Source: Candidatus Enterousia sp.
GTDB lineage: Bacteria; Pseudomonadota; Alphaproteobacteria; Rs-D84
Assembly: GCA_045647355.1 (NCBI GenBank)
Contig: JAZRMF010000005.1
Span: 101,763-165,762, forward strand
Reading direction: 5' to 3'
DNA length: 64,000 nucleotides
Shown: in pieces, positions 5,873 to 53,156 of the stretch
Position numbering within the stretch: the first letter of the stretch is position 1
Layout of the letters: each line of letters begins with the position of its first letter
The notes under the pieces: generated by a model
The model's input: the letters and a program-made list of their open reading frames with translations, nothing else
Database searches by the model: none
What the model was told of the DNA's origin: nothing
Program-made: the position numbers and the translations under genes

Positions 5873-5975
5873 AATCTACCTCTTTGTGCTGATTGTAACA
5901 CAATATACGATAAAAATCTAGATTATAACCACACGATATGGTATAATAATCACATTGATTAAAGGGGATTTTTCA

Positions 5976-6515: not shown

Positions 6516-6525
6516 GTCAATACTT

Positions 6526-8301: not shown

Positions 8302-8355
8302 TTATATCATATTTTAGGAATAAAAAGAATATGAAATACATATACCCCATTAATA

Positions 8356-8386
8356 TAGGAATAAAAAACACCCCAAACGGGGTGCT
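8356..8386 (-). terminator. rho-independent terminator downstream of tRNA-Leu
   Basis: hairpin caccccaaacggggtg followed (minus strand) by T-run. Confidence 0.6.
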
Positions 8387-8395
8387 GTATATTTC

Positions 8396-8480
8396 TGGTG
8401 GCCCTGGTCGGACTTGAACCGACACTCCTTGCGGAACTTGATTTTGAGTCAAGCGCGTCTACCAATTCCACCACAGGGCC
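8396..8480 (-). tRNA. tRNA-Leu (anticodon CAA)
   Basis: minus-strand cloverleaf: acceptor GGCCCTG/CAGGGCC + A + CCA, anticodon loop CTCAAAA, long variable arm, T-loop GGTTCAAGTCC; 85 nt. Confidence 0.85.
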
Positions 8481-24081: not shown

Positions 24082-24690
24082 TTATTTGTTATGCGCGGCA
24101 TCATATAACAAATTCAAAGTCCGCAACATGTCTGGCGTTGCCTCGACTGGTTGAAAAATTGCACATTGTGTGTCATTAGCCGCCAAAAGATAATTTATTT
24201 TATCAGTATCGGGCATATCGTAGGCAAACGGTATCTGGACAACCCCAGGTGCAACATTATACGCAATTGCGGGGAATCCATTATTATATTTTGAATCAGA
24301 TGGCAGAACCGCTATATTCACACCACCGTCTGTAAAGCACGTTGGGTATTGGGACGCCCAAGAAAATAAACCAGTTCCACGGGTCACAATATCACTGTAC
24401 AGACGCCCCGCCCTATCAGAAAGCGCATGCGGTGAAATGGTTTGCAAAATCGCATTAATTGCAACAGTGCTTGGTATCAACACATATGTTTGCCGTATTA
24501 TTGTCGTCCACGCTTGTTTGGCCAAGATGGTCCTATCCCAATTTACCTTTGGAAATATCTGCGAAACCTTTTGCACGTATTCCAATTTCATTTTGGTATT
24601 GGCGTCATTTATTTCTTGAATAAGCGTGATATTTGACATCTTGGCACATCCATTATCAATAAAATTAGCGTTTTTTCCCAAACGGTTCAT
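24082..24690 (-). CDS. hypothetical protein, paralog pair member
   Basis: shares C-terminal motif AYNVAPGVVQIPFAYD with next ORF (GGYNIAPGVVKIYIPTD). Confidence 0.4.
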   Translation of the reverse strand: MNRLGKNANFIDNGCAKMSNITLIQEINDANTKMKLEYVQKVSQIFPKVNWDRTILAKQAWTTIIRQTYVLIPSTVAINAILQTISPHALSDRAGRLYSDIVTRGTGLFSWASQYPTCFTDGGVNIAVLPSDSKYNNGFPAIAYNVAPGVVQIPFAYDMPDTDKINYLLAANDTQCAIFQPVEATPDMLRTLNLLYDAAHNK

Positions 24691-25438
24691 AAAATGGGAT
24701 GTTGCACCGCTGCGCCAATGCTTTATATTCGTCTTTCAATTTTGGCACAAATTCTATAACCGCCGCCCATGCCATAGATTGTGACACCAACTTTTCATCC
24801 AAAGCGCACGCATTTGCATTATCTGTCGGTATATATATCTTTACTACCCCGGGCGCAATATTATATCCCCCAACGGTCCAACCGTTATTAAGTTCGTTTT
24901 TACGACGATCTGTGGGATTCCACACAAATTTTTGCCCTTTGGGCGCAAAAAATAATTCATTTGCGCGCTGGTCAAAGGGCCTGAACCAGCGCCCCAAGTG
25001 TACAAAATTACATAAAAGGCTTGTCATATCTTCTTTATGGAGTTGTTTGTACAAAAACACTTGTGCCGCAATATTATATTCCATTTCGCGCTCTGTTCGT
25101 ACTCTGAAATCGCAGTAGTAACGGTTTTCTTCATCCCGTTTGCAATAGTAATTTTGATTATCTAATGAATAAAAGTCGGCCCGCGCAAAGGAACTGGCGA
25201 TATAGTGTATAGCATTTGGAACCCGGATAGCGTACAATTCCGAATTATTTTGGCCGCTTTTATCCGTGGAAACCATTTTCTCGATTTTTCTTATGATATA
25301 CGCCCATGGTTTTTTACATAATTCTTCTGGCTCATAATTACCCGGCAGAATATTTTTATTGGACATGATTTGCGTGAACATATACTTTTCGCGTTCACAC
25401 TCCGCATTAATCCGCTTTATGATATCATCGTTTGACAT
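24665..25438 (-). CDS. hypothetical protein, paralog pair member
   Basis: see previous; 26-nt overlap suggests co-translation. Confidence 0.4.
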   Translation of the reverse strand: MSNDDIIKRINAECEREKYMFTQIMSNKNILPGNYEPEELCKKPWAYIIRKIEKMVSTDKSGQNNSELYAIRVPNAIHYIASSFARADFYSLDNQNYYCKRDEENRYYCDFRVRTEREMEYNIAAQVFLYKQLHKEDMTSLLCNFVHLGRWFRPFDQRANELFFAPKGQKFVWNPTDRRKNELNNGWTVGGYNIAPGVVKIYIPTDNANACALDEKLVSQSMAWAAVIEFVPKLKDEYKALAQRCNIPFYEPFGKKR

Positions 25439-25523: not shown

Positions 25524-25991
25524 TTAATCAGTTGCAGTGCCCTTGATAATTTGTTGAGCATAATATTCAAAACTGGTTGTTTTGCCGTCTTGTAATCTGA
25601 CATCACATTCTTGTTCGGTTTCTGGGTTCAAATACAGCGCCTTGACCATTAATAAATATGCCTTGTAAAACCATTGCCTGGTTTCCGCATCCGGATGCTT
25701 AAACCCGATAATTTCACAACAATAACAAATATGCATATAGAAATGCACCGGGTATTTATTGCGTAATTTTGCAAAGACCGCAACCGCATCTAATGGAATA
25801 TCATCCTGCATAAATTTCGTTTTATCATCGGCGGCATTATTCAATATCGTACAGCGAATTTTTCTAATAACTGTTTTTGACACATCATCATTATAACTGC
25901 CGTCACCACCACGAAGCGCAGTTAAAAGTATACTCTGTTGTTTCATACTGATATTATCATTGAACACCCAGTTTTGTATTACAGAAGCCAT
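25524..25991 (-). CDS. hypothetical protein (last gene of packed operon)
   Basis: starts 1 nt after GT9 gene stop. Confidence 0.4.
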   Translation of the reverse strand: MASVIQNWVFNDNISMKQQSILLTALRGGDGSYNDDVSKTVIRKIRCTILNNAADDKTKFMQDDIPLDAVAVFAKLRNKYPVHFYMHICYCCEIIGFKHPDAETRQWFYKAYLLMVKALYLNPETEQECDVRLQDGKTTSFEYYAQQIIKGTATD

Positions 25992-25992
25992 T

Positions 25993-27513
25993 TTATTTAA
26001 CCTTTTTATAACATGTTAATTTGTGTTTTGCCCCCAAACACTTGCTCAACCAGGCTAAACGTATATTGTGAATTAACGAAAAATGCCATGAACAAAAGTT
26101 GTATGGTATTTTGGGCAGATGATAATTTGGCGATTGAATAAAACGTATAATATCCAATACAGACTTAAAATCTTGCTTCACGTGGCATGGTATTACAACC
26201 GGTAATTGGCATGGGTTGGAACTGCAAAAAGACAACGGAGATTCTGCGGCAAGAGATTGTATAGATAAAGCATCCCAAAAGCCAGATTTAAAAATCACAA
26301 TATTTTTAATGCCGCACTTTGTTGCCACATGCGTCAGTGCGGTATCAGGCGTCACTATTAAATCAATATTATTTAATTGTATCTGATTGATTAAATCATA
26401 AAAGCCATCATCTTTTAATCTTTCCAATTTCAAGACTTTTGACACATTGGCACTAAAATCTTTGGTTTGCGCATCGTGTCCAAACGGAATAATTATACCA
26501 AGATTATTAAAATGCGCCCTAAGTTGTTGAACAAGACAATCCAATTCTGAAATTGACAAACTTTTTTGATCAGAGGAAGAAAATGGATTTATGTAAATAC
26601 GTTTGATTTTGTTTGCCGTTATGTTTCGTGCATGATGCGGGAATATTGGCTTTACCAGGGACGAAACACACCGTTTCATATAAGGGAATATGTTTCCCTC
26701 AGCCAGTAAAACATCCGGAATATTTTTCATTGCAAAATACTGAATAGAATTACCCCGACGAACAAAAAAATAATTACGACTGTTTACTATATATATACCA
26801 TCCTTTGCATAATTGACGGCAAAATCATGAAGCCACGCATCATCTATATCTAACAAATCAGAAAAAACATATATACCATTATCTGGGATGCGCGCCCATG
26901 CATCTAAATCCTTGGCATCATAAAAACCCGATAATTGCCGAAATTGTTTTGATAGCACAACCTTTTTCTTTACGTTAAAAGACCGTGCAAAAACATCCAA
27001 CATATATGTACTTAGAAAAGAATCCCCTATGAAACGGTATAAATCAATATAATATAAAACGTCATGGTTGATGTTTTTTAATTCGCGAGCCAAGGCATGC
27101 CTTAGCCCATATTTGGTTTTGTAAAATTTGGCAACAAAATTCGTATTCTTTTGCAATTTTTGTATTAGATTTGCACGTTGTGCCAATCTTAACTTACCGC
27201 CCCGAATATAATATGATACTTGGAATCCTTGGTATGAAGTTTCAGAACAAATCTTGGTTATAATCGGGAAAGGGTATCCTAAACACATATAATTGTGTGC
27301 ATCTGATGATTTCCGTATTGTGATTACATAGTCAGTTCCAACGGTTATCAAACGGTAATCTATACGATTCTTTTTCATATATCGTACCGCTCGATCACTA
27401 ATACCTATTAACGTTGGTAATTTTTGCTCTAAACAAACAAAAAGCTCCCTGACCTGTTTATCAGACAGAGAGCTTTGTTCGAATTTAGAAACGTTTACGT
27501 GAAACCTAGACAT
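25993..27513 (-). CDS. glycosyltransferase family 9 (heptosyltransferase-like) domain protein with extended N-terminus
   Basis: C-terminal DLIVTPDTALTHVATKCGIKNIVIF and CSSNPCQLPVVIPCH resemble GT9 donor-binding and Cys cluster. Confidence 0.55.
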   Translation of the reverse strand: MSRFHVNVSKFEQSSLSDKQVRELFVCLEQKLPTLIGISDRAVRYMKKNRIDYRLITVGTDYVITIRKSSDAHNYMCLGYPFPIITKICSETSYQGFQVSYYIRGGKLRLAQRANLIQKLQKNTNFVAKFYKTKYGLRHALARELKNINHDVLYYIDLYRFIGDSFLSTYMLDVFARSFNVKKKVVLSKQFRQLSGFYDAKDLDAWARIPDNGIYVFSDLLDIDDAWLHDFAVNYAKDGIYIVNSRNYFFVRRGNSIQYFAMKNIPDVLLAEGNIFPYMKRCVSSLVKPIFPHHARNITANKIKRIYINPFSSSDQKSLSISELDCLVQQLRAHFNNLGIIIPFGHDAQTKDFSANVSKVLKLERLKDDGFYDLINQIQLNNIDLIVTPDTALTHVATKCGIKNIVIFKSGFWDALSIQSLAAESPLSFCSSNPCQLPVVIPCHVKQDFKSVLDIIRFIQSPNYHLPKIPYNFCSWHFSLIHNIRLAWLSKCLGAKHKLTCYKKVK

Positions 27514-28225
27514 TATTGACCAACTTTATAAATTCTTCTTTGGTATATTCTATATCTGGTTGAAAATCCGCATGTGAACCGTTATGAAAAACATAATATG
27601 GTCTGGTGCCAATAACTTTGACCGTGTCACCATTTATATACAGGCTGTCTTCTTCGGGTAATGCCAACACAGGTGTATTTTTTGAATATTCCGTTAAATA
27701 GTCCGTTGCTTTTTTGGTCTTTTCGGCATCTTTGTTTGTATAGTGCGCGGTAAAAGAGAAACCAAAAACGGCATTAAATCCACTGGTATTTGCCAATTTA
27801 ACGTTATTTTCATCCATGTACAAGCAAGAATCTATATCTTGACCAAAAATAATTGCACCCGCACTGCACCCATAAATCACGCCGCCAGCGTTCATATATT
27901 CTGTTAACCAATCAAACGCAGGGCTTGCTTTCAATTCTTGTAATAATTTATACGTATTACCACCGCCAATGAACACACCACCAAAATCAGATATATTTTT
28001 CTCAGATATATCAGACGCAGAACGCAATACCACAATTTCCCCATGCTTTATATTTTTGAATTCGCCCTCTAGCCATGTTTTACAACTTTCATAATTATCA
28101 GTACCGCAATCCCGCGCCAAAGGGATATACAAAAGAGGTTTTGATGCATCCACCAATGATTCAAACAATTTGTTTGGTATAACCGTTTTTTCGGCCCAAC
28201 CGCCACCACATAAAATTAATTTCAT
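27506..28225 (-). CDS. peptidase S51 (dipeptidase E / cyanophycinase-like) family protein
   Basis: GGGNTYKLL and catalytic-Ser context IYGCSAGAII. Confidence 0.6.
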   Translation of the reverse strand: MKLILCGGGWAEKTVIPNKLFESLVDASKPLLYIPLARDCGTDNYESCKTWLEGEFKNIKHGEIVVLRSASDISEKNISDFGGVFIGGGNTYKLLQELKASPAFDWLTEYMNAGGVIYGCSAGAIIFGQDIDSCLYMDENNVKLANTSGFNAVFGFSFTAHYTNKDAEKTKKATDYLTEYSKNTPVLALPEEDSLYINGDTVKVIGTRPYYVFHNGSHADFQPDIEYTKEEFIKLVNNV

Positions 28226-29115
28226 AATATCTCCTTTATACTTTCAGAAAACATTTTAGCCTTGTTTATATAATATTCCACCCTTTTATTAATTTGATAA
28301 TTATTTTTTTCATACCTAAACCACAAATCATACAGCATATAAATAATTGCGTAATTTTTTATGGTTTCCATATCATTATCATTTACGGCACCGATTTGTC
28401 GCATCATATTAAATATTTTCGGACGCGCATATAAAAAACTTGCCGCATCATATAACGGATCAAATGCAATGGGATGATCAATATCTATTACACCTGCCAA
28501 TTTATCGTTGGCATTAAATATGTAATTCTTTTCGTTAGGGTCTAAAATTAAAAACCTGGCATTATCTGTATAGCGGTACTTGTTTGCAAAATATTTTATG
28601 GCAGAATCGATATCAATATCTATTTCGAATAATTTTTGTACTTCGCGGGCTTTCATAACCAGATGTTCCAAATATTCCTGCCATGTATCCACCTGTAATT
28701 TTGTGTCAGCAATCGGTCCAAAAAAATTCAGTTTTATATTATGTGCCAATTTAAAAACGGACATCATTGCAGATACATGATTTGTTGTTAAATCCTCAAC
28801 CGAATAATTATTTCCATATATTCTTTTTTCCGCCAGCACACAATAATTCGGGACAAGTTCCCCAGGACCATATATATGCACAACAGATGCAACCGGCACC
28901 CCAACATTTGCCACCAATTGCAACATATCAGATTCAAATTGAAATCTAGATTTATTTAAGTCTAATCCAAAAGATGAACGCAAAATCTTGTAAATAATTC
29001 CGTCTTTTTCAAATATAGCATGCATATACCCATGCCCAAAATATGTATAGCCATTATCAATGAAATAGCGATAATAAGGTTCCACGGATGGGCTATAAAC
29101 GGAATCTATCGACAT
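28222..29115 (-). CDS. APH/ChoK-like phosphotransferase (kinase-like fold)
   Basis: ILDPNEKN catalytic-loop-like and VIDIDH (DxD) motifs. Confidence 0.45.
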   Translation of the reverse strand: MSIDSVYSPSVEPYYRYFIDNGYTYFGHGYMHAIFEKDGIIYKILRSSFGLDLNKSRFQFESDMLQLVANVGVPVASVVHIYGPGELVPNYCVLAEKRIYGNNYSVEDLTTNHVSAMMSVFKLAHNIKLNFFGPIADTKLQVDTWQEYLEHLVMKAREVQKLFEIDIDIDSAIKYFANKYRYTDNARFLILDPNEKNYIFNANDKLAGVIDIDHPIAFDPLYDAASFLYARPKIFNMMRQIGAVNDNDMETIKNYAIIYMLYDLWFRYEKNNYQINKRVEYYINKAKMFSESIKEIL

Positions 29116-30041
29116 TTGGCAAACGCCTCTTGTACCAAAGGTTTAATATCCGAACCATAATCAGGATACATGGCTTGTATATAAAAATCGATAAGAGCTG
29201 AATAGTCACTAATTTTTGCGTTCATTTCACCATGTATTTTATCGACTGCTTTTATATACTTTTTTAATGTTCTGCCATCCATATGAGATGAATTCGGCAT
29301 AATATTGGAATGTAACATTTCAGATACACATGATATACAATCATAATATTTTAATTCAATTGGTGTATTCGCAACATAAAAATCGTTCAATGGCGATACA
29401 GACATTGTATTTTTTAACGCATATTTTTCCATCAATAGCACTTGCAAAGTTGAAGAACTTTCAATTGCCAAATCTGTACCATTATTTACATATATTGATA
29501 GTACGCATATATTGTTATTTGCATAATAAAATCTGATATTTCTGCCGGTTAGTAAAAAATCGCCACATTGACCAAATTTATTTCTGCACGCATCATCTAC
29601 TATCTGGACATTTTTATACGGTGCCAGAACTTTCAAGAAATCAGCATCGTTACGGTTGACTTTGATTGACAATTTATCAGGGTCAAATTTTACAATATTG
29701 ATAAAAAAATCGTATTGATCCTTTACTATATCTTGCAAGCCCCACAGGTCTTTTAATAATCCGATATTTGTGTATGAAGACGCGTATCGCCCTATTCCGG
29801 GGTCAGTGATATCTGGCAAATATTTTGAATTAACAGATGCTTGAACCAACATGTGCCCGGCATCAGAAATTGGTTTCCCTAGCAAAAATTGTTTAAATAC
29901 ATTCGTGCAAGAACCAATAACAAAAACAGTTGGATCTATTTTTGAATTTAATGGAACGGAAGGTTCTAATGCATAACCACGATTTCCAAAGAAATTCACA
30001 AAATCATCTTGTAATTGATGGTATCTTGCTGTGTATTCCAT
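29106..30041 (-). CDS. alanyl-tRNA synthetase catalytic-domain paralog (standalone, 311 aa)
   Basis: FVNFFGNRGYALEPSVPLNSKIDPTVFVIGSCTNVFKQFLLG parallels AlaRS N-terminus FLDFF.SKGH..V.SSSLVP.NDPTLLFTNAGMNQFK..FLG. Confidence 0.55.
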   Translation of the reverse strand: MEYTARYHQLQDDFVNFFGNRGYALEPSVPLNSKIDPTVFVIGSCTNVFKQFLLGKPISDAGHMLVQASVNSKYLPDITDPGIGRYASSYTNIGLLKDLWGLQDIVKDQYDFFINIVKFDPDKLSIKVNRNDADFLKVLAPYKNVQIVDDACRNKFGQCGDFLLTGRNIRFYYANNNICVLSIYVNNGTDLAIESSSTLQVLLMEKYALKNTMSVSPLNDFYVANTPIELKYYDCISCVSEMLHSNIMPNSSHMDGRTLKKYIKAVDKIHGEMNAKISDYSALIDFYIQAMYPDYGSDIKPLVQEAFAKCR

Positions 30042-30042
30042 A

Positions 30043-30720
30043 CTACATTGCCCCTTGTATTTCCTGTTTTAATATGGAGAAAAATGTTGCCATGCGTTCC
30101 AGACGCAATTTTGCAATTTGTTTTGCGGTTTCTGTAAACATCTTGTCTGGGATATTTACATTTTTTGTTGCAAATTCTATATTCGGTGTATGTTTAGAAA
30201 TATCTATTATTTTGCCAGATGCGGTTCCACCAACCAAATTTGTTTTTATATATTCATCAATATCGCAGTCATTATATATTTCTTGTTTTTGTTCCCCTGC
30301 TATCATATAAGAACGTGCGATTCCTATATTACCTATGACATCCAATTTGTCCGCATCAAACAAAATTTTGGCTTCCATACTTTCTGGAACCAATCCACCC
30401 CTAAAACGGTGTGTTCTGATTGCGGCAGCAACGGCCTGTGCAAACGATGTTGGTTTACCCAAAGATTCCAATATGTCCTGAGCCTGTTGCGCCCCCAATA
30501 TGGCATGATCTATTTTTTGACCATCATGTGGCATATCTTCTTCGGGACGCGCAATATCATGTAACAATGCCGCCGCCTTTAAAACATCCATGTCTACAAT
30601 ACAATTTGGTTCTGTTTGCGCAATTTTTATACAGTTATTATACACCCTAAATGTATGTGACAGGTCGTGAGATGACGATTGTAATTTGTTTTTTACTATG
30701 ACAACTAGTTCATCAAACAT
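30043..30720 (-). CDS. HD-domain phosphohydrolase
   Basis: H...LLHDIARP...H...D metal-binding pattern. Confidence 0.65.
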   Translation of the reverse strand: MFDELVVIVKNKLQSSSHDLSHTFRVYNNCIKIAQTEPNCIVDMDVLKAAALLHDIARPEEDMPHDGQKIDHAILGAQQAQDILESLGKPTSFAQAVAAAIRTHRFRGGLVPESMEAKILFDADKLDVIGNIGIARSYMIAGEQKQEIYNDCDIDEYIKTNLVGGTASGKIIDISKHTPNIEFATKNVNIPDKMFTETAKQIAKLRLERMATFFSILKQEIQGAM

Positions 30721-30736
30721 AGACTTCCCCTTTTTA

Positions 30737-31660
30737 TTATCGCGTTCGTTTTCTTGCCTCTAGCATTGGATATATAGCACAATCTGTACAGCAAGGGCAA
30801 GGTTCTTGTTCCCCAACGACAATTGATTGTCCTGTCAACAACTGTTCTGGTGTTATTTGTTGTGTACTGTATAAACATGGTGAAATTACTCCATTTGGAT
30901 GGACGAAAACGAACGTTTTGCCAGCAAGGCATTTATTTTCGCCATTTTGCATCAACAAATCCAAATGTCCAGTATCTATAAATTGCTTTAAACACATCAG
31001 AAATTCATTATCGCCACAATGTGTCGCAATAAATCTAGAAACTTCTTGCTTTTGCTTTACCGGCACAGATAAATCCATGTCCATATTTTTGTAATATGTA
31101 GATGATTTATCTGCTAGTCTAAAACTAAACATTGCGTTATTTTTGTGCGCAATATCATATACGTGTTGCAGATTTTGCATATTTGCGTTTTCTCTCGATA
31201 ATGTCATGGACAAAGACAAATTAAGATTTGGAATATGCGCCATACGACCCAATACATCTATAACACAATCATAATTGTCTATTCCGCGTAATTTGTTATG
31301 AGTTTCTTTGGTACCTTCAATTGATACACTTAAAATCACCTGTTCAAACATTTTGGCGGCATAGACGCAAATACGATTGATGACATCGGGACGCGTTGCA
31401 TTTGTATTTAAAAACAACCGTTGTAATTTTGGCATACACCCTTTAAGAACCTGGATTATATCAATTAAATCGTTGCGTAAAAAGGGTTCACCCCCCGTTA
31501 AACTTATCGTATCCACCTGGGCAAAACATTGATGCGAAAATAATTTTTCTATTTCTGCGACAGACATTTCGCCATAGAAAGATTTTTCTTTCCATATGTT
31601 ACACATTGTGCAATGGCTGTTACATCTGTTGGTTACCGAAAAAGAAACATTATTTACCAT
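30737..31660 (-). CDS. radical SAM enzyme with C-terminal Cys-rich (SPASM/twitch-like) region
   Basis: CNSHCTMCN (CxxxCxxC), GGEP motif, C-terminal EPCPCCTDC. Confidence 0.75.
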   Translation of the reverse strand: MVNNVSFSVTNRCNSHCTMCNIWKEKSFYGEMSVAEIEKLFSHQCFAQVDTISLTGGEPFLRNDLIDIIQVLKGCMPKLQRLFLNTNATRPDVINRICVYAAKMFEQVILSVSIEGTKETHNKLRGIDNYDCVIDVLGRMAHIPNLNLSLSMTLSRENANMQNLQHVYDIAHKNNAMFSFRLADKSSTYYKNMDMDLSVPVKQKQEVSRFIATHCGDNEFLMCLKQFIDTGHLDLLMQNGENKCLAGKTFVFVHPNGVISPCLYSTQQITPEQLLTGQSIVVGEQEPCPCCTDCAIYPMLEARKRTR

Positions 31661-32771
31661 GTTGCTTTTCCCAATTTAAATTATTTTGCCACACGTATTC
31701 TCTCTGATACGGCTTAAATGAAAAGCATAATGGGCAATAATCACCGCAATTCATACTCTTGCTTTGGTTTGTACATGGGGTTGGATTATCCATATCATGA
31801 TCTGATAATTCGTTCAAATACCCCTCTTCCCATACAATTTTGTCATCATAATATTTTGCGACACAATATTTTGAACTGATTAATCCGGAACAGATTCTAA
31901 TCTGGCCATCAGGATGTATCAACACACGTTCACCCAGTTTTGCTGGACAATATCCATAATATTTTGGATTGCTATCAAATTCTTCTTTCGTCACAAAGTG
32001 GTACGGAATTCGAACGTGGACACCGAATTTGCCTGCGGCAACCTTATCCGCCAAAATATCACGCGCAATTATCCAATCTTCTGGCTTAACAGCGGTGTCT
32101 TCGGTCCATGTATCCATTGGGAAACCATGTTTGAACAACACATGAAAGTTGATATTTCTGACACCAAGATCCTGGGCAAAAAGAATCATATTTTCTATTT
32201 CCAACTGACCGTTTTTATCTTTTTGTAACAACATTGGATGTATACAAGATGTTATGTCAACCGTATACCCCAAATCAACGGCCCGTTTTATATTCTTTTG
32301 ACACTTGTCAAATGCACCCGGTCCACGCAGAAAATCGTTTATTTCTGGACGATGACCATCTATGCTGAACGACACTTCATCTAATGCCTTGATATCATCC
32401 AAATTCAGCATATCGTCTTCAAATTGTCCATTTGTATCCATACGAACATATGAATAACCAATTTGTTTCAATTTTTGTATAAACGTTCCCAAATCTTTGT
32501 GTTCTGGGTCACCATATTTGGATGGTTCGCCACCCATAATTGTTGCCTTACGTGCCCCTAATGTATGCACATCTTCCGCCAAATTGCACATCTGATCCAG
32601 TGGAATTTGCCGTCTGTTATTCATTTTGAAAACCAAATTGGGTTTATACAAGCACTGTTTACAACGCAGATGGCATTCTTCGGTGGTATAAAAGAACACC
32701 TGTTTAACCCGACCATCAAAATAATTAATAAATTTATCTGATATATCATAATGGTATTTTTTATTTGGCAT
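31650..32771 (-). CDS. radical SAM / SPASM-domain enzyme
   Basis: CHLRCKQC (CxxxCxxC), GGEP, C-terminal CTNQSKSMNCGDYCPLC. Confidence 0.75.
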   Translation of the reverse strand: MPNKKYHYDISDKFINYFDGRVKQVFFYTTEECHLRCKQCLYKPNLVFKMNNRRQIPLDQMCNLAEDVHTLGARKATIMGGEPSKYGDPEHKDLGTFIQKLKQIGYSYVRMDTNGQFEDDMLNLDDIKALDEVSFSIDGHRPEINDFLRGPGAFDKCQKNIKRAVDLGYTVDITSCIHPMLLQKDKNGQLEIENMILFAQDLGVRNINFHVLFKHGFPMDTWTEDTAVKPEDWIIARDILADKVAAGKFGVHVRIPYHFVTKEEFDSNPKYYGYCPAKLGERVLIHPDGQIRICSGLISSKYCVAKYYDDKIVWEEGYLNELSDHDMDNPTPCTNQSKSMNCGDYCPLCFSFKPYQREYVWQNNLNWEKQHGK

Positions 32772-32902
32772 ATTGTATCCTTATGTAATTAAAAAAGACT
32801 AACCGACCCCATGTCGAATTAGTCTCCTTTTCTTCTTTGACGTATCATATTCTAGACAAACAAACACGAAATGTCAATAAATTAATACCTATCGAGGCAA
32901 AA

Positions 32903-33717: not shown

Positions 33718-34737
33718 TTATTTATTATTTGGCAAAATACCTGATATTCCCATGCCACATAATTTGGTATATACTGGACGATTCAACCCCAAGTATTTGC
33801 TAAGGGTGGACGGTTTTTGGTTACACCATAAATCATGATAGGAAACGTTGCCGTTTTTAATCGTCTTTATCAGGCCACTTGGCAATTCGGTGCGCCCGAT
33901 GCACGAAGACAGGTAAACAAAGCACTCGTCATTATCGCCCAAATGTTCACATGCCAATATGCGCGCGTACACGTTCAGTGTTAAATCGGCCTTGCTGGCG
34001 TCTTTGGTCCATGGGCTGCCCCCGCCAATTGGGCACGCGGTGGAATAAAAATCGCACGCCAATTTACGTCCGGTCACACCACAATCGGCAATTGGTCCAT
34101 GATGGGTATAACGCCCCGTGCCGTTTACGATGATATTGGTCGGCCGTGCACCCAAAATATCCTCGATAGCCCCCGTCAGGTCTTCGTCCCGCAACATAGG
34201 AATCGCGACAATCGCGGTTTCTATTTTATCATCGTTCAATGTGATTTGCGTTTTGATATCTAACCCCAGGTTATCTGATTCACGCGCCAATTCATATAGG
34301 GCGTTGTTTAGTTTTTTTGCCAAAAACAGTTTCCTGTTTATTTTGCCCTCACCTTGGCACGCGTATCCAACAAACACACCTTGGTCGCCCCAGCCGTTAT
34401 TATCAACCCCACGGGCAATATCCGCCGATTGCATTCCAATAAGGTTGATTATCTCGATTTTATCCGGCTTAATCGCACAATCCCCCCATATTTTGGCATA
34501 ACGTTCGTCATAGCCGATTTCGGCCAATGCCTGTTTCACATACGTGCCTAAATCGCCGATTGTGGCGTGGCTGGTTATCTCTCCGCCCAGGACAACTGTG
34601 TTGCCCTTGATCATAACCTCGACAGCATATCGAACATTTGGATCTTTGGTAATCATGCGGTCCAAAATAAAGCTTGAAATATAATCGGCTGTTTTATCTG
34701 GGTGTCCCAAAGACACCGCTTCTGCTGTTCTTTGCAT
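33718..34737 (-). CDS. divergent S-adenosylmethionine synthetase (MetK) paralog, 339 aa
   Basis: SLGHPDKTAD, GGEITS, GWGDQGVFVGYA, GPIADCGVTGRK, GGGSPWTKDASK align to MetK motifs but phosphate-loop residues altered and protein about 45 aa shorter. Confidence 0.65.
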   Translation of the reverse strand: MQRTAEAVSLGHPDKTADYISSFILDRMITKDPNVRYAVEVMIKGNTVVLGGEITSHATIGDLGTYVKQALAEIGYDERYAKIWGDCAIKPDKIEIINLIGMQSADIARGVDNNGWGDQGVFVGYACQGEGKINRKLFLAKKLNNALYELARESDNLGLDIKTQITLNDDKIETAIVAIPMLRDEDLTGAIEDILGARPTNIIVNGTGRYTHHGPIADCGVTGRKLACDFYSTACPIGGGSPWTKDASKADLTLNVYARILACEHLGDNDECFVYLSSCIGRTELPSGLIKTIKNGNVSYHDLWCNQKPSTLSKYLGLNRPVYTKLCGMGISGILPNNK

Positions 34738-34956: not shown

Positions 34957-35349
34957 TTAAAATTTACTGTTACGCTTTACTAATACCTGTGAAATTATCA
35001 AATCAGCCGGTAATTGCGGATGTTGCAATAAATCTGTTAAGTTCACCCATTTTTGTTGATCATGTACTTTCAATGTTATATCGCTGGCATAATCCAAAAC
35101 TTCATACGCGTACAGTTCTAATTCTTTACCGGAATCCAATCGCAGTTTTGCAACGGTTATTAACTCGCCTATGTTGGCATCAATCCCTAATTCTTCTTTT
35201 AATTCACGATGCAGACAAACGGGGCCGTCTTCGCCATCTTCAAATTTACCGCCGGGGTATTCCCATTCGCCTGCCAATGGTTCTGTCGGCGCACGCCGCA
35301 TCAACAATACAGAATCATCCTTTCTAAATATTCCCGCCGTTACTTTCAT
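34957..35349 (-). CDS. NUDIX hydrolase
   Basis: Nudix box GGKFEDGEDGPVCLHRELKEELGI. Confidence 0.8.
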   Translation of the reverse strand: MKVTAGIFRKDDSVLLMRRAPTEPLAGEWEYPGGKFEDGEDGPVCLHRELKEELGIDANIGELITVAKLRLDSGKELELYAYEVLDYASDITLKVHDQQKWVNLTDLLQHPQLPADLIISQVLVKRNSKF

Positions 35350-35505: not shown

Positions 35506-36258
35506 TCAACGATGTTTTCTGAATAATACCGATGGGCGATGTCCGGATCCAGAACGCATTTTATTGGTTGACACAACTTTGTTTGCTATTGTCCTGCGAA
35601 ATGCCGCAGGAAGCAATTTACGACCCAAAATTATTTCATAAACCTGTTGTAATTCACCCAATGTAAATTCGCTTGGCATCATGTCAAACACTATGTCTGT
35701 GTATTCAATTTTGTTGCGCAAACGTTCTATGCCAGCCTTTATAATGATTGCATGATCAAATGCCAAATCTGCCTCGGCCAAAGTTAAATCTTCGTTATGC
35801 AACAATAATTTGCCGTTATTATACTCTATGCTGAACCATTTTGCATCGTGATTGCCAGAATAATGCAGTTTATTTTTGTTTATCAACGCCATATGCGCAA
35901 TCGAAAAAACACGCGTTCTGGGATCACGATTTGGCGCATCAAATGTGTATAACTGTTCCAAATATATGTTACCGGTTGCGCCTGTTTCATTACGCAATAT
36001 GCGATATGCCGCATCAAGCGCAGTTTCCTGAATTCCTATAAAACCGCCAGGCAAATTCCACTTGCCTTTTTGTGGATAATCATCGCGATGTACCAATAAA
36101 ACACTGAATAATTGTTTATCTGCTTTGCGCCAATTTTCTGCTGCACTGTTTGACACAGAAAATATCAACACATCAGATGTAACCGATGGGCGGTCAAATT
36201 TTGATGCATCGTATGCAGCCAAGAATTCTGCTTCAGATGAAAATTCGTGTTTTAGCAT
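35506..36258 (-). CDS. nrtR: NrtR-like Nudix-related transcriptional regulator
   Basis: N-terminal Nudix fold (PGGFIGIQETALDAAYRILRNETG) + C-terminal wHTH FTLGELQQVYEIILGRKLLPAAFRR typical of NrtR; start at MLKHEF with RBS aggaaagg. Confidence 0.55.
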   Translation of the reverse strand: MLKHEFSSEAEFLAAYDASKFDRPSVTSDVLIFSVSNSAAENWRKADKQLFSVLLVHRDDYPQKGKWNLPGGFIGIQETALDAAYRILRNETGATGNIYLEQLYTFDAPNRDPRTRVFSIAHMALINKNKLHYSGNHDAKWFSIEYNNGKLLLHNEDLTLAEADLAFDHAIIIKAGIERLRNKIEYTDIVFDMMPSEFTLGELQQVYEIILGRKLLPAAFRRTIANKVVSTNKMRSGSGHRPSVLFRKHR

Positions 36259-36332
36259 ACCTTTCCTACTTTGTTTTATATTTTTGTATTTTGGCAATAA
36301 TCAATAGCATTGTCAAATCTTTGATTTTCCCT

Positions 36333-36646: not shown

Positions 36647-37462
36647 TTACCTTTTGTTCTGCAATTGTTTGGCTGTCGTCAATTGAATATTAAAGTGTGA
36701 AAAATCAAATAATTTGACGACCTGGTCGATTTCTTGATTTATTCCACGACAAAGGTCTTGTACAACCGTCACAGAATAGCCCTTGCATAAATATCCCCAA
36801 ATCGCATATTTTACGCAGAAATCACTCGCAACGCCCATAATATAAACATCTGTATTTTTCGGTTCAAATCCGGTCAGGGCTTTTTGTATTGCACGCGGAT
36901 CCGCCCACACATCATACACATTTTTTAATATTCTGTCATATTTATCCAATCGTATTGCTAATTTCCATCCATTTGTTCCGTACAAACAATGCGGCGGAAA
37001 ATCTCTTGATTCTGATGTGTTGTTATATGTTGCGCGATAATGCGTATCAAATGTTGCTATAGTTTTATCGAATTTAACTTTACGCAAAAAATCATTTGCT
37101 GGCTCAATCAAAGATTCTGCACCGGCAACAGGCAGTTTACCATTTGCCATCACAAAATCTTTTTGCATGTCAACAATGTGTAAAAGTGTTTTGTTCGTTT
37201 TTTTATTGTCTTCTACTTTTGGACTTTTGTATTTTTTCACTAACTTTATCACATCACTAACGGTCTGAATTTTGTCTTGTTCGCTATCAGGAATAATAAC
37301 TTCTAAATCTCTTTCGACATCCATTAATAATTCGACTTTATCCAAGGAATCTGCACCCAAATCGTCTTCAAAAAATGCATTTGGGGTTATTTCACTTGCA
37401 TCAACATCTAATCGTTCCAAAATAATTGGACGAATTTGTTCAAGTATTTGCTTGTCTGACAT
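36647..37462 (-). CDS. acyl-carrier-protein domain fused to isochorismatase-family cysteine hydrolase (nicotinamidase-like)
   Basis: ACP motif DLGADSLDKVELLMDVE; C-terminal IVDMQKDF...GVASDFCV...V.DLCRGI cysteine-hydrolase motifs. Confidence 0.6.
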   Translation of the reverse strand: MSDKQILEQIRPIILERLDVDASEITPNAFFEDDLGADSLDKVELLMDVERDLEVIIPDSEQDKIQTVSDVIKLVKKYKSPKVEDNKKTNKTLLHIVDMQKDFVMANGKLPVAGAESLIEPANDFLRKVKFDKTIATFDTHYRATYNNTSESRDFPPHCLYGTNGWKLAIRLDKYDRILKNVYDVWADPRAIQKALTGFEPKNTDVYIMGVASDFCVKYAIWGYLCKGYSVTVVQDLCRGINQEIDQVVKLFDFSHFNIQLTTAKQLQNKR

Positions 37463-41275: not shown

Positions 41276-42640
41276 ATGCATAATAACATGCGTATTTTAG
41301 TTGGAATATGCACTGCGTTATTTATGTGGGTGTCTGCTGGATTCGCCGAACAAGTACAAACATTAGAACTAGATGATAAACAAGCGCTGGCATTGGCTAA
41401 CGATCTAGTAAATAAAGGCGATTTAAAGTCTGCTACAAATATTTTAGATGCTGTTATAAAAAGCGAGGATGAAAATGCACGTACAGTCGCATTATTTGAA
41501 ATGGGACGAGTGGCATTGGCTAGACACGATTATGCAACAGCAGAGCAAAATTTTCTGACCATATTGAATTGGTACCCAGAGGCAACATTTGTTCGTATGG
41601 AACTAGCCAAAACTTATTTTGCTGCTGGACAATACAGTAGCGCAGATTTTAATTTCCGTTTGGTACTGGCAGATAAGAGTTTATCTGACAATGAACAAAA
41701 ACTTGTACGGAACTATTTGAATTTAATTCGTAAACAAAGAAATTGGGATGTGTTTGCCAGTTTTTCTGTAGTTCCAGATTCAAACCTTAACTATGCCACA
41801 GGCAGAAGAGAAGAATGTATAAACACGATAGCAGGTACACTTTGTCGTGACTTAGAAGACAAATCGTCTGGGATTGGGTTGCAGTACAGTTTAGGTGGCG
41901 ATTATTACCTTAAATTGACCGACCATTTCGGTATAAAAACCAGTGCAGCTTTATATGCGTTGGATTTTCCAACATCAAAATTTGATGATTACATGTTTTA
42001 TGTGGCCGCAGGACCTCGTTACATAATAGATGGAATTGGCGAATTCAGTATCCAGCCATTTGCACAATTGCGCTGGTACGGCGACGAATATTATGACACT
42101 ATGCCAGGCATACGGGCTGATGCAGATTTTGATTTAACAAAGCGGTTGCATTTGTCTCTAGGGGGATCGTATAGCAGGGATATGTATCGTGACGATTCCT
42201 TGAATAGAATTTTGGGTGGCAACGAATATTCGATATACGTTCAGCCACGTTATTATATCAACAATAAAAGTTTCGTATTTGTAGGTACTGCTTATACGAA
42301 TGTCACAGCAAAACAAAAATCATACGGTAACCATGGGTTAAATTATTCCCTGGGATATTTCGCAGAATTGCCATTGACTTTGACTCTGCTTGCTAGGTTG
42401 GATCTGATACAAACAAGGTATAAAAAATCACAGTATTTTATAATGGAAGACAGTAACCTAGAATACTTCACAAGACGTGATACAACATACAGAACTTGTA
42501 TACGGCTATCAAGTCGTTATTTAGAATACAAGAGGCTTTATCCATCGATAAGCTATACTTACACCAGGCGCAACTCAAATGCTCCTATATACGAATTTGA
42601 CAAGCACAGATTTCAAATAGAGATGAACTACCGTTTTTAA
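41276..42640 (+). CDS. TPR + C-terminal beta-barrel outer-membrane protein, Slam/DUF560-like
   Basis: signal peptide, N-terminal TPR-like helices, C-terminal alternating beta pattern ending ...EMNYRF; about 70% identical paralog at 47313-48650. Confidence 0.5.
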   Translation: MHNNMRILVGICTALFMWVSAGFAEQVQTLELDDKQALALANDLVNKGDLKSATNILDAVIKSEDENARTVALFEMGRVALARHDYATAEQNFLTILNWYPEATFVRMELAKTYFAAGQYSSADFNFRLVLADKSLSDNEQKLVRNYLNLIRKQRNWDVFASFSVVPDSNLNYATGRREECINTIAGTLCRDLEDKSSGIGLQYSLGGDYYLKLTDHFGIKTSAALYALDFPTSKFDDYMFYVAAGPRYIIDGIGEFSIQPFAQLRWYGDEYYDTMPGIRADADFDLTKRLHLSLGGSYSRDMYRDDSLNRILGGNEYSIYVQPRYYINNKSFVFVGTAYTNVTAKQKSYGNHGLNYSLGYFAELPLTLTLLARLDLIQTRYKKSQYFIMEDSNLEYFTRRDTTYRTCIRLSSRYLEYKRLYPSISYTYTRRNSNAPIYEFDKHRFQIEMNYRF

Positions 42641-47312: not shown

Positions 47313-48650
47313 ATGAAAAAAACTTTTTGTGTTTTGTTATTTTTGATTCCCACACTTGTAGTTGCACAAACAACTGATGTCACATATAACGATTCCTTGG
47401 AGTTTGCAAAAAAGCAAATTGTTGGTGGAAATTATGCACAAGCAGAAAAAACTTTGCGAAATTTAAATGGCACCAAAAACACCCAAGAAGAAATAGAAAA
47501 ATGGTTTCTGCTTGGTCAAGTTTATATGGCACAAGGTGACTTTAATACTGCAATAAAGATTTACAGAAAAATCTTAGATAAACAACCCGACTTGTCCAGA
47601 GTCCGTTTAGAATTAGCAAGGGCATTGTTTTTTAATAAACAGTATCAAGAAGCAGAAAATAATTTTTTGTTTGTTCGAGCCGACCACAATACCCCAAATG
47701 AAGTTGTGCAAAAAATTAACTTATTTTTGACCGCTATCAGACAACAAAGAAACTGGTATGCTAATTTTTCGTTTGGTATTGTTCCTGATTCAAACCTTAA
47801 TTATGCCACTGGACGACGTGAAGAATGTATAAATACAATGTTTGGTATTTTGTGTCGTGAATTGGATGACAAATCATCTGGTGTTGGCCTTCAGTATGGA
47901 CTTGGTGGGGATTATTATATAAAAATGACAGATAATTTCGGCATCAAAACCAGTGCATCGTTATATGCCCTTGATTTTTCAAATTCCACATTTGATGATT
48001 ATATGCTGTATATGGCAGCAGGTCCTAGATATGTCCTGGGCGGTATTGGCGAAATCAGTGTTCAACCGTTCACTCAATTACGTTGGTACGGTGGAGAGTA
48101 TTATAATACTGTCCCCGGTGTGCGTGCAGACATAGATTTGGATTTATCAAAACGTATTCGATTATCATTTGGTGGTTCATATAGTAAAGATATGTACCAC
48201 GACGATGATTTAGACGATATTTTACGTGGGGACGAATACACAACCTATATTCAGCCTAGATATTACATAAACAACAAAAGTTTTACATTTGTCGGTTTGT
48301 CTTATACAACCAACACAGCAAAATTAAAATCATATGGCAGTAATAGTATGTATTATTCTATTGGTTATTTTGGTGAATTGCCTTGGACCCTATCATTGTA
48401 TGCCAGGTTAGATTTAACACAAACAAAATACAAAGATTCACAATTCTTTATAATGGATGATTACACAGTAAATAAATTTACACGACGTGACATCGGTTAT
48501 CGTGCATATTTACGTCTATCCAGTCGTTATTTGGAATACAAACGATTGTATCCTGCAATCAGTTACACATACACTAAACGTGATTCAAATGCTCCTGCGT
48601 ATGATTTTGATAAGCATAGATTTCAAATCGAAATGAATTATAGATTTTAG
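47313..48650 (+). CDS. TPR + beta-barrel outer-membrane protein, Slam/DUF560-like (paralog)
   Basis: see 41276-42640; ends ...EMNYRF. Confidence 0.5.
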   Translation: MKKTFCVLLFLIPTLVVAQTTDVTYNDSLEFAKKQIVGGNYAQAEKTLRNLNGTKNTQEEIEKWFLLGQVYMAQGDFNTAIKIYRKILDKQPDLSRVRLELARALFFNKQYQEAENNFLFVRADHNTPNEVVQKINLFLTAIRQQRNWYANFSFGIVPDSNLNYATGRREECINTMFGILCRELDDKSSGVGLQYGLGGDYYIKMTDNFGIKTSASLYALDFSNSTFDDYMLYMAAGPRYVLGGIGEISVQPFTQLRWYGGEYYNTVPGVRADIDLDLSKRIRLSFGGSYSKDMYHDDDLDDILRGDEYTTYIQPRYYINNKSFTFVGLSYTTNTAKLKSYGSNSMYYSIGYFGELPWTLSLYARLDLTQTKYKDSQFFIMDDYTVNKFTRRDIGYRAYLRLSSRYLEYKRLYPAISYTYTKRDSNAPAYDFDKHRFQIEMNYRF

Positions 48651-50028: not shown

Positions 50029-50104
50029 TCGGGCATAGTTCAGTCGGTAGAACAACGGACTGTTAATCCGTATGTCACTGGTTCGAGTCCAGTTGCCCGA
50101 GCCA
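50029..50104 (+). tRNA. tRNA-Asn (anticodon GTT)
   Basis: acceptor TCGGGCA/TGCCCGA + G + CCA, anticodon loop CTGTTAA, T-loop GGTTCGAGTCC; 76 nt. Confidence 0.9.
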
Positions 50105-50109
50105 CAAAT

Positions 50110-50142
50110 TAGCCGTAATTCCTTGGAATTACGGCATTTTCT
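50110..50142 (+). terminator. rho-independent terminator after tRNA-Asn
   Basis: agccgtaattccttggaattacggc + TTTTCTTTT. Confidence 0.8.
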
Positions 50143-50438
50143 TTTATTTTTGTCTATGGCAATTTGTTCTGGTATAAAATGCAAAAAAGTGTTAAAAATC
50201 GCAAATAATTATACCAGAGTTATACACGGCTTGTAGAAAAAACGCCTATAAAAACGATTGCAAAACCAGTATTTACAAGCCTCTCAGAAGATTATATGCC
50301 CCTGAGAACAACGGAACGAAGTCCGTATATCTGCTTGTATACAAAATGTATACATTTTTAATTATCAGATTTCCAAGAAACGACTGGACTTTTGTTAAAA
50401 GATAAGGACAAATACAACAACTTTTAAAGGGGTTGTAC

Positions 50439-50657
50439 ATGAAATACAAACATTTTCAAGAAATTGAGCCGAGCAATAAAACTGATTTTATTATGCTCTA
50501 CTTCGCGGCGTGTAGATCATTACGCGAATTGGAATCGAATGTACGATACAAACAAAACGGAAATCTAACCTGCAAACAGGCATGGCTATTCCGCCGTTTG
50601 TATCACAAATTATTTCAAATGGCTGCATTATGGAAAAACGACGATGATCGCCCATAA
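50439..50657 (+). CDS. small conserved basic protein (paralog of 44704-44910)
   Basis: RBS aaagggg; about 80% identity to other copy. Confidence 0.5.
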   Translation: MKYKHFQEIEPSNKTDFIMLYFAACRSLRELESNVRYKQNGNLTCKQAWLFRRLYHKLFQMAALWKNDDDRP

Positions 50658-50678
50658 CAAATAAACGCTTGCGATAAA

Positions 50679-52133: not shown

Positions 52134-52202
52134 TATAAACCGCCTTTATCTAACAGATAATACTTGATAACCTGTGCCATTTTAACGAACTTTTTTTATT
52201 TT

Positions 52203-53096: not shown

Positions 53097-53156
53097 AAAA
53101 CCTTCTAATTTTATATTTAGAATAATACAACATAAAACGCTTCACAAAAACAAACC

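Follow-up and report, generated by a model that had tools for sequence, protein, structure and literature searches.

The locus considered here raises the question of what a bacterium does with a detached part of alanyl-tRNA synthetase (AlaRS). It lies in a 64,000-nucleotide (nt) stretch of Candidatus Enterousia sp. (positions 101,763 to 165,762 of contig JAZRMF010000005.1, referred to below as the window), chromosomal DNA of a gut alphaproteobacterium. A 311-amino-acid (aa) open reading frame (ORF) with an ATG start occupies positions 29106-30041 of its minus strand. An initial annotation had reported this ORF, which is present as claimed, and had described its product as a stand-alone paralog of the AlaRS catalytic core. 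As detailed below, the protein is homologous to the AlaRS aminoacylation domain, has lost the residues required for alanine activation, and is encoded by the fourth gene of a rare and mobile eight-gene cassette, located within a stretch of low guanine-plus-cytosine (GC) content. It could quite possibly be an aminoacyl transferase that builds an aminoacyl-nucleoside.

The AlaRS similarity that can be recognized from the single 311-aa sequence is weak. Residues 17-55 (FFGNRGYALEPSVPLNSKIDPTVFVIGSCTNVFKQFLLG) align with the N-terminal motif region of AlaRS, confirming the motif quoted in the initial annotation. The Pfam family PF01411 (tRNA-synt_2c) matches aa 10-150 with 25 bits (E=8.7e-6), missing the gathering score of 30.3, and the TIGR00344 (alaS) model matches residues 10-133 with 21.4 bits, missing the equivalog cutoff of 457. 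The top match of a phmmer search in PDB is the A. aeolicus AlaRS (E=0.022). The homology is established by the family as a whole. The profile of a 146-sequence family alignment matches the A. aeolicus enzyme (1riq) with E=9e-22, profile positions 19-306 corresponding to AlaRS residues 6-322. An AlphaFold2 (AF2) model built on the same alignment has a predicted local distance difference test (pLDDT) score of 96.6 and a predicted template-modeling (pTM) score of 0.93, and its 24 best Foldseek neighbors in PDB are all AlaRS (top TMq 0.79, E=3e-15), followed by alpha subunits of glycyl-tRNA synthetase (GlyRS). An earlier AF2 model from a shallow alignment had the same outcome, and with neither model did Foldseek reveal an unrelated fold that matches better. 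Thus homology to the PF01411 superfamily is borne out by the family profile and the structural comparison, though the single sequence falls short of it, and the assignment of a stand-alone AlaRS catalytic-core paralog stands.

The editing and C-Ala domains are absent, as had been noted, and the C-terminus corresponds approximately to AlaRS residue 322. The tRNA-recognition domain, also reported as missing, is in part retained: its first helical segment forms aa ~225-311 (about 90 residues, equivalent to AlaRS ~265-322), and the protein therefore extends slightly past the catalytic core. A word-indexed search of 5.8 billion proteins revealed ten homologs of 279-321 aa, 37-100% identical and having many invariant residues in common; in all, about 12 near-full-length homologs of this cassette type are available, all within the same length range and most of ~311-318 aa. 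In the database records examined, relatives of the protein are named only "hypothetical" or "uncharacterised".

For residue mapping, residues 6-322 of the A. aeolicus AlaRS were added to the family alignment, which consists of 11 cassette-type proteins and 135 members of a wider family. The Ala-AMP-binding residues, whose conservation the initial annotation had proposed to check, are not conserved. The motif-2 arginine is replaced by Asn71, and the other cassette-type proteins likewise have Asn here (11/11), the wider family retaining Arg in 124 of 135 members. At the position of the motif-3 arginine, the protein has Val201, and other cassette-type proteins have Val, Ile, Gly, or Ser and no Arg; in at least 113 of the 135 wider-family members the residue is Thr (mostly), Val, Ser, Asn, or Ala, with no Arg among the residues tallied. 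The aspartate that binds the amino group of alanine is substituted by Glu194, a glutamate being found in 137 of the 146 aligned family members (11/11 cassette-type and 126/135 wider-family proteins). The pocket asparagine is Val180 here, Val in eight of the 11 cassette-type proteins, and Asn in 115/135 of the wider family, and the AlaRS tryptophan is Cys152 (Cys in 9/11), with Tyr in 128 wider-family members. The alanine-pocket residues of the Escherichia coli AlaRS are Asp235 and Asn212, equivalent to Glu194 and Val180, respectively.

Other AlaRS residues are kept in the family, namely the DPT aspartate (145/146), the FK lysine (144/146), and the proline of PSN, along with a following basic helix (R257, K260, K261, and Y262). 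The retained FK lysine corresponds to E. coli Lys73, which touches the 3' end of the tRNA. Glu194, Lys50, Asp36, Gln67, and Gly166-Arg167 all align with AlaRS active-site motifs and are near-invariant among sequences that are only ~20% identical. Since the motif-3 arginine is gone, adenylate formation of the class II type is not expected, and hence the protein should be neither a synthetase nor an adenylating ligase. We conclude that it is a catalytically degenerate relative of AlaRS and not a working AlaRS.

The AlaRS-like gene belongs to an operon of eight minus-strand genes (25524-32771) whose ends overlap or abut, making them tightly translationally coupled. A promoter-like site (TTGACA-17-TAGAAT, 32849-32877, minus strand) with 11 of 12 consensus matches is situated ~80 nt upstream of the first gene; it is a consensus match only, such sites not being enriched in the region (63 found against 55 expected). 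Neither a riboswitch nor a tRNA gene was found beside the operon, the only tRNA genes being tRNA-Leu at 8396 and tRNA-Asn at 50029.

The first two genes encode radical S-adenosylmethionine (SAM) enzymes. The 373-aa rSAM373 (31650-32771) matches Pfam Radical_SAM (E=1.6e-12) and Fer4_12 and carries a cysteine-rich auxiliary-cluster region at its C-terminus; in NCBIfam and in PDB it has generic MoaA and ScmF-level matches only. The gene of the 307-aa rSAM307 (30737-31660), overlapping that of rSAM373 by 11 nt, encodes a Radical_SAM protein (E=1.1e-16) with weak similarity to SPASM and, among PDB entries, to SkfB and to BlsE, an enzyme of a nucleoside pathway. The third gene (30043-30720) encodes a 225-aa HD phosphohydrolase (Pfam HD, E=8e-15; NCBIfam PRK10119, 84 bits). 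The AlaRS-like gene, which combines the aminoacylation-domain fold with the first helices of the tRNA-recognition domain, overlaps by 10 nt with the gene for a 297-aa APH-like small-molecule kinase (28222-29115). This kinase matches Pfam APH with E=2.9e-4 and 21.1 bits, missing the gathering score of 23.2, and its L004 ortholog (see below) has a weak APH match too; the motifs LILDPNEKN and VIDID are found where the catalytic positions are expected. The 239-aa product of the next gene (27506-28225) is a serine peptidase of the PepE/MccG family (Pfam Peptidase_S51, E=8e-26), whose nucleophile motif GCSAGA and catalytic histidine (TAHYTN) align with those of Lmo0363 (PDB 3l4e, E=1.8e-11), so that both the S51 fold and the catalytic Ser and His are present.

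The last two genes encode proteins with no assigned function. For the 506-aa protein (25993-27513), the sole match is a 30-residue sub-threshold similarity to Glyco_transf_9 (E=0.006); no NCBIfam, PHROGs, or PDB match was obtained, and PADLOC yielded only a sub-threshold PDC-M63A match (E=0.021). The 155-aa protein (25524-25991), encoded by the last gene of the conserved block, has no family match in the libraries scanned. PDB sequence searches with the kinase, the 506-aa protein, and both radical SAM enzymes were uninformative. PHROGs contains no match for five cassette proteins out of eight, the AlaRS-like protein being one of the five, and the PADLOC 2.0 scan left this protein, the S51 peptidase, and the kinase without a match. 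The matches that PADLOC did return are weak and at the domain level (pVip for both radical SAM enzymes, E=4e-7 to 4e-9, and Cas3-HD for the HD protein), and we rejected assignment of the cassette to a known defense system. Nor is the AlaRS-like gene regarded as a phage gene, given the absence of its relatives from PHROGs and from the IMG/VR viral contigs.

Just upstream of the operon, a short and divergent MetK-like SAM synthetase of 339 aa is encoded (33718-34737, minus strand; 170 bits against a cutoff of 309). It might be a local source of SAM; the gene does not adjoin the cassette in other loci.

Four further metagenomic loci, L001/L002, L003, and L004 (around the homologs P0005, P0008, and P0002), contain the cassette with all eight genes and their order preserved, the individual proteins being 45-86% identical. 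The best conserved is rSAM373 (82-86% across L001, L003, and L004), followed by the HD protein (71-81%), the 155-aa protein (65-77% in the same three loci), rSAM307 (52-66%), the kinase (46-60%), and the 506-aa protein (45-59%), the latter present in all cassette loci. The flanking genes differ: phage capsid, Mrr, HNH, and AAA_15/AAA_21 genes in L001; arginyl-tRNA synthetase (ArgRS), lysozyme, and NrdD in L003, the ArgRS gene being ~600 bp outside the cassette; and GNAT, ABC-F, NUDIX, ASCH, PIN, and AAA_15 genes in L004. In the four loci compared, no conserved small ORF that could encode a precursor peptide was found on either side of the cassette. No dedicated synthetase was found in the cassettes of the window, L001, or L004.

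Among 185,579 species genomes, the intact cassette was detected only in one metagenome-assembled genome (MAG), that of a sheep-rumen alphaproteobacterium. A remnant is present in the Bacilli MAG VLC_121 (L013, 8031-10258, GC content 24.6%), where fragments of rSAM307 and the HD protein and an 85-aa AlaRS-like piece contain no intact ORF under genetic code 11 or code 4. Such a remnant implies that the cassette was once transferred between Alphaproteobacteria and Bacilli and was afterwards lost. Thus, with one intact carrier and one decayed remnant in species genomes, the cassette is rare and mobile and has moved between phyla. No relatives of the AlaRS-like protein were found in 2.9 million IMG/VR viral contigs, and a search of the BFVD phage proteins returned only giant-virus AlaRS.

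In every cassette locus other than the window, the gene immediately after the cassette lies on the opposite strand and encodes a DUF4254 protein (L001, 14505-15146; L003, 13452-13712; L004, 12260-12895). The window has no such gene; its positions 24082-25438 are taken instead by unrelated ORFs for which no family was detected. A literature search on DUF4254 found nothing useful.

The cassette-type proteins are a small part of a much larger family. When 1.84 billion cluster representatives were searched exhaustively with the profile, 347 clusters (at 50% identity) were identified with E<=1e-3, 214 of them with E<=1e-10. Nearly all members are stand-alone, unannotated proteins of ~300-420 aa from gut and rumen bacteria, with at least one archaeal record, and are often encoded beside mobile-element genes. 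A second word-indexed homolog search with the family alignment added few sequences and no informative names. In some members the AlaRS-like module is fused to another enzyme. For instance, P0051 and P0160 (the latter in L005, 8001-9650, 549 aa) have a C-terminal HD phosphohydrolase, this type being represented by nine near-identical sequences on contigs of up to 88 kb, and P0101 (L009, 549-2111, 520 aa) has an N-terminal GNAT acetyltransferase.

Gene associations were counted over seven independent neighborhoods of distant family members. The most frequent neighbors are MccF-like S66 peptidases and MccD-like proteins with the class I methyltransferase fold, each found in five neighborhoods. 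Three neighborhoods contain a RimL/MccE-like GNAT (Acetyltransf_3), in addition to the GNAT fused to an AlaRS-like protein, and two contain an Orn/Arg decarboxylase. Radical SAM enzymes, two or three DCD-like proteins, and a ~340-aa core similar to asparagine synthetase A (AsnA-like, class IIb, derived from asparaginyl-tRNA synthetase) were each observed in three of the seven, and a thymidylate-kinase-like protein together with a carbamoyltransferase in one. The radical SAM enzyme adjoining the distant AlaRS-like protein P0014 in L007 is 50% identical to rSAM373. Genuine synthetases occur as well, GlyRS of two unrelated architectures in 3/7 neighborhoods (L007, L011, and L014) and two adjacent aspartyl-tRNA synthetase (AspRS) genes with a gene similar to that of lysyl-tRNA synthetase (LysRS) in 1/7 (L010). 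Overall, the neighbors of the wider family constitute the tailoring and immunity toolkit of microcin C, lacking MccB or MccA, and also follow the logic of the albomycin nucleoside pathway.

Several of these neighborhoods deserve individual description. The GlyRS genes in or beside the AlaRS-like operons (L007, 12432-12726; L011, 333-3323; L014, 11862-13454) encode the dimeric type and an alpha-beta fusion, which suggests that in these clusters either glycine is the transferred residue or GlyRS is the target. In L010 (8420-11250), two adjacent full-length non-discriminating AspRS (517 and 491 bits) and an N-terminally shortened LysRS-like gene accompany an S66 peptidase, a decarboxylase, a methyltransferase, two DCD-like proteins, and the AlaRS-like protein; the AspRS pair looks like a target duplication for self-resistance. 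The L014 operon (5686-8469, on a 108-kb contig) combines AlaRS-like, DCD, radical SAM, and GlyRS genes; around it are found several NUDIX genes along with genes for a CYTH protein and for a metallo-beta-lactamase weakly similar to the anti-Pycsar Apyc1, a hint of a phage or other mobile element.

The closest functional precedent is AcmF of the ascamycin producer Streptomyces sp. 80H647, an AlaRS-like protein that moves alanine from Ala-tRNA to a sulfamoyl-nucleoside (PMC12945691; Zheng et al., ACS Catal 2024). AcmF does not have the residues for ATP binding and alanine activation, carries the substitutions D232E (Glu232 being essential) and N219Q, and holds the acceptor, a sulfamoyl-adenosine, by the motif-2 residue Arg93 (PMC12945691). 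Compared by the description of AcmF only, both proteins are stand-alone truncated AlaRS homologs that have lost the editing and C-Ala domains and the activation residues, both show the Asp to Glu replacement at the amino-binding position (AcmF Glu232, Glu194 here), and both are encoded in gene clusters of the nucleoside type. The differences are substantial. AcmF has the whole tRNA-recognition domain, whereas the 311-aa protein has its first ~90 residues; AcmF anchors the sulfamate by Arg93 and the glutamine, whereas Asn71 and Val180 are found here, the wider family having Arg in 124/135 and Asn in 115/135. The active-site pattern of the wider family (Arg / Asp-Glu / Asn / Glu) is thus AcmF-like, and of this pattern the cassette-type subfamily retains the Glu alone. 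Further, AcmF belongs to an actinomycete sulfamate pathway, where the dedicated AlaRS AcmD is its partner, whereas the window cassette contains no synthetase, resides in a gut alphaproteobacterium, and has as its other members two radical SAM enzymes, an HD protein, an APH-like kinase, and an S51 peptidase. In literature searches on this family and cluster type, AcmF was the sole AlaRS-like biosynthetic enzyme found, the other papers being background.

In the assembly of the albomycin component SB-217452, the aminoacyl-tRNA synthetase (aaRS)-like AbmF condenses an aminonucleoside with the seryl-adenylate supplied by AbmK, a seryl-tRNA synthetase (SerRS) from the same cluster, which also encodes two radical SAM enzymes, a nucleoside kinase, a methyltransferase, and a carbamoyltransferase. 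The window cassette resembles it in the aaRS-like protein, the two radical SAM enzymes, and the kinase, AbmF being compared by its description and its derivation from AlaRS not being assumed. AbmK is mirrored in the wider family by the GlyRS of L007, L011, and L014 and the duplicated AspRS of L010, but the window cassette has no partner aaRS, no pyridoxal phosphate-dependent enzymes, and no siderophore genes. In microcin C-type systems, the S51 peptidases named MccG hydrolyze toxic isoaspartyl-nucleotides and thereby provide self-immunity (PMC9239234). The cassette peptidase belongs to the family that includes MccG, and among the neighbors of the wider family are MccF-like S66 peptidases, GNAT and decarboxylase proteins of the MccE-like type, and MccD-like methyltransferase-fold proteins. 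However, neither MccB, the ThiF-like adenylyltransferase, nor the MccA precursor was seen in the loci examined, and therefore an aminoacyl-nucleotide would have to come from the aaRS-derived enzymes.

With canonical AlaRS, the 311-aa protein has in common the class II fold, the order of motifs, and the DPT, FK, and Q-x-C/A-x positions, but not the motif-2 and motif-3 arginines, the aspartate, the complete tRNA-recognition domain, or the editing and C-Ala domains. AlaX, another stand-alone AlaRS relative, derives from the editing domain and not from the catalytic one (PMC13149037). AlaX, HisZ, EpmA/PoxA, AsnA, and the SerRS-like carrier-protein ligases are related to the present case by the common principle of an aaRS domain in a non-translational role. 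HisZ, EpmA/PoxA, AsnA, and the SerRS-like ligases stem from other synthetases, and the enzymes among them keep the ATP-binding motifs.

From these comparisons we infer a possible scheme that extends from the transferase activity, its donor, and its acceptor to the order of the steps, the product, and its biological target. The 311-aa protein, descended from the AlaRS aminoacylation domain, would no longer activate alanine with ATP and would act as an AcmF/AbmF-type aminoacyl transferase that builds an aminoacyl-nucleoside, an assignment to which we give a little less than an even chance. Its donor would be a pre-activated amino acid, either aminoacyl-tRNA or aminoacyl-adenylate from a normal synthetase, and its acceptor a nucleoside- or nucleotide-derived compound held in the former adenylate site, with the conserved Glu194 positioning the aminoacyl group. 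The two radical SAM enzymes may remodel a nucleotide into this acceptor, the HD phosphohydrolase may take phosphates off, and the APH-like kinase may add a phosphate as a protection or as a structural part. The S51 peptidase, acting in the manner of MccG, would hydrolyze the free toxic aminoacyl-nucleotide in the producer. Thus the mobile cassette would encode an antibiotic-like aminoacyl-nucleoside antimetabolite. Functional links with the HD and radical SAM enzymes are indicated by the fusion of an HD domain to a distant family member and by the recurrence of the rSAM373 type beside P0014.

Several observations weigh against a transferase. The cassette-type subfamily has none of the residues by which AcmF holds its acceptor (Asn71, Val180, and Cys152 are found in their place) and is left with the glutamate alone, so that a pseudo-enzyme or a different chemistry is possible. 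As the protein ends ~90 residues into a domain that AcmF has whole, its binding of tRNA is uncertain. The hallmarks seen around the wider family, a partner synthetase, a transporter, a GNAT, and an S66 peptidase, are all missing from the window cassette; two of its eight proteins have no detectable family; and its radical SAM enzymes are no closer to nucleotide enzymes than to peptide maturases. If catalysis has indeed been lost, the protein could be a ligand-binding, regulatory, or scaffold partner, possibly a specificity subunit, of a radical SAM or HD enzyme. HisZ, a paralog of histidyl-tRNA synthetase that serves HisG as a non-catalytic partner, provides a precedent; replacement of the motif-2 and motif-3 arginines, the pocket asparagine, and the Trp/Tyr residue in the cassette-type subfamily is in line with such a role, as are the HD fusion in P0051 and the conserved pairing with an rSAM373-type enzyme in otherwise different clusters. 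Yet the near-invariance of Glu194, Lys50, Asp36, Gln67, and Gly166-Arg167 is more typical of a working site, and AcmF is catalytic despite a similarly stripped one, and so we consider a pseudo-enzyme unlikely, though deserving attention. A marginally smaller probability is assigned to a system with the same chemistry and a different purpose, that is, an anti-phage or inter-element conflict system making a toxic or chain-terminating nucleotide analog intracellularly on infection, as prokaryotic viperins do. The weak pVip matches of both radical SAM enzymes, the defense-type or phage genes around the cassette in L001, L003, and L004, the low-GC island in the window, and the absence of an exporter gene from the cassette all agree with it. 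Nevertheless, no PADLOC model was matched meaningfully, the radical SAM enzymes are closer to MoaA, ScmF, and SkfB-type models than to viperin, the viral contigs and phage proteins searched contain no relative, and the wider family is accompanied by immunity genes in the style of antibiotic producers.

The remaining explanations appear considerably less probable. It is improbable that the cassette is a pathway for a ribosomally made peptide with post-translational modifications (RiPP), in which a ribosomal peptide would be matured by the radical SAM (SPASM-like) enzymes together with the kinase and the peptidase, and would receive an amino acid from aminoacyl-tRNA through the AlaRS-like protein. 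Peptide aminoacyl-tRNA ligases (PEARLs), of which the AlaRS-like protein would be a functional analog, are a precedent for tRNA-dependent peptide extension, and the best NCBIfam matches of the radical SAM enzymes include the peptide maturases WgkB, StsB, PapB, and ScmF; however, these matches are all far under the family cutoffs, no conserved small ORF was found beside the cassette in the four loci compared, and the HD fusion together with the DCD, thymidylate-kinase-like, and carbamoyltransferase neighbors of the wider family points to nucleotides. An immunity decoy, a crippled AlaRS core that sequesters a toxin mimicking aminoacyl-adenylate and so spares the housekeeping synthetase, would explain the fold and pocket architecture kept without catalysis and would suit a cluster whose S51 peptidase may also serve immunity. 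It seems slightly less probable still, since the residues needed for binding an Ala-AMP mimic (motif-2 Arg, Asn, and Asp) are precisely those changed, immunity is poorly served by stoichiometric sequestration, and the HD and GNAT fusions suggest a pathway enzyme.

Hardly any weight is given to an ATP-dependent amino-acid:carrier-protein ligase or to a fragment or pseudogene of alaS, despite the AlaRS homology and the phosphopantetheine-binding (PP-binding) domain encoded 7 kb away. The initial annotation had listed three roles for truncated synthetase paralogs, of which the transferase, using a pre-activated amino acid, is favored by the evidence. A carrier-protein ligase disagrees with the loss of both ATP-binding arginines (Asn71 and Val201) and with the lack of a cognate carrier protein. 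A self-resistance synthetase is not supported either, because the catalytic residues and the anticodon, editing, and C-terminal domains are gone and the protein cannot replace AlaRS. The acyl carrier protein (ACP) fusion suggested as a partner is joined to a nicotinamidase, adjoins NrtR, and is absent from the four other cassette loci; we regard this AcpP-PncA fusion as an unrelated unit for salvage of nicotinamide adenine dinucleotide. No canonical alaS is present within the 64-kb window. The conserved length of the ~12 homologs, their own invariant residues, and the fixed operon partners in five loci exclude a fragment of alaS.

The transferase reading can be extended to the family, where we hold it more tentatively, and as a whole rather doubt it. 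The cassette-type protein may represent the most reduced branch of a large and as yet unnamed family of transferases descended from AlaRS which, with AsnA-like cores or with dedicated GlyRS or AspRS, would form a route to synthetase-inhibiting aminoacyl-nucleotides and aminoacyl-nucleosides that is independent of MccB and of a peptide. The cassette would then yield a new radical-SAM-modified member of this class of inhibitors, and its AlaRS-like enzyme, in which no canonical phosphate-binding residue is left, would employ a new acceptor or a new chemistry.

Other features of the window are described here for completeness. The carrier-protein ORF (36647-37462, minus strand, 271 aa) combines a housekeeping-type ACP (AcpP models, 84 bits, above the cutoff) with a PncA-like nicotinamidase/isochorismatase, an unusual fusion, and adjoins the genes for an NrtR-type regulator with NUDIX and winged helix-turn-helix domains (35506-36297, minus strand) and for a NUDIX hydrolase (34957-35349, minus strand). 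Two paralogous Slam genes (41276-42640 and 47313-48650, both on the plus strand), unexpected in a gut alphaproteobacterium, each have upstream ORFs that match no family and possibly encode their lipoprotein substrates. Finally, at 50029-55308, tRNA-Asn(GTT) is followed by a block of very low GC content (31-33%). This block, probably a restriction-modification island that has become integrated, encodes an Eco57I-like methylase and a D12-class adenine methyltransferase.

AcmF is the only characterized AlaRS-derived biosynthetic transferase, described in 2024 from one Streptomyces pathway. The evidence presented here points to a far larger set of AlaRS-like proteins with no functional name in the records examined, tied to genes that serve immunity and tailoring in microcin C and albomycin and lacking the known core enzymes. 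The cassette type of the window is itself rare, with about a dozen sequences among 5.8 billion proteins. If the proposed function is true, the family would define a hidden class of microbiome antibiotics and give genome mining a handle on synthetase-targeting antibiotics in gut, rumen, and archaeal metagenomes. It would likewise provide an example of an aaRS active site run "backwards" as a transferase, and compact catalysts for the synthesis of aminoacyl-nucleoside analogs.

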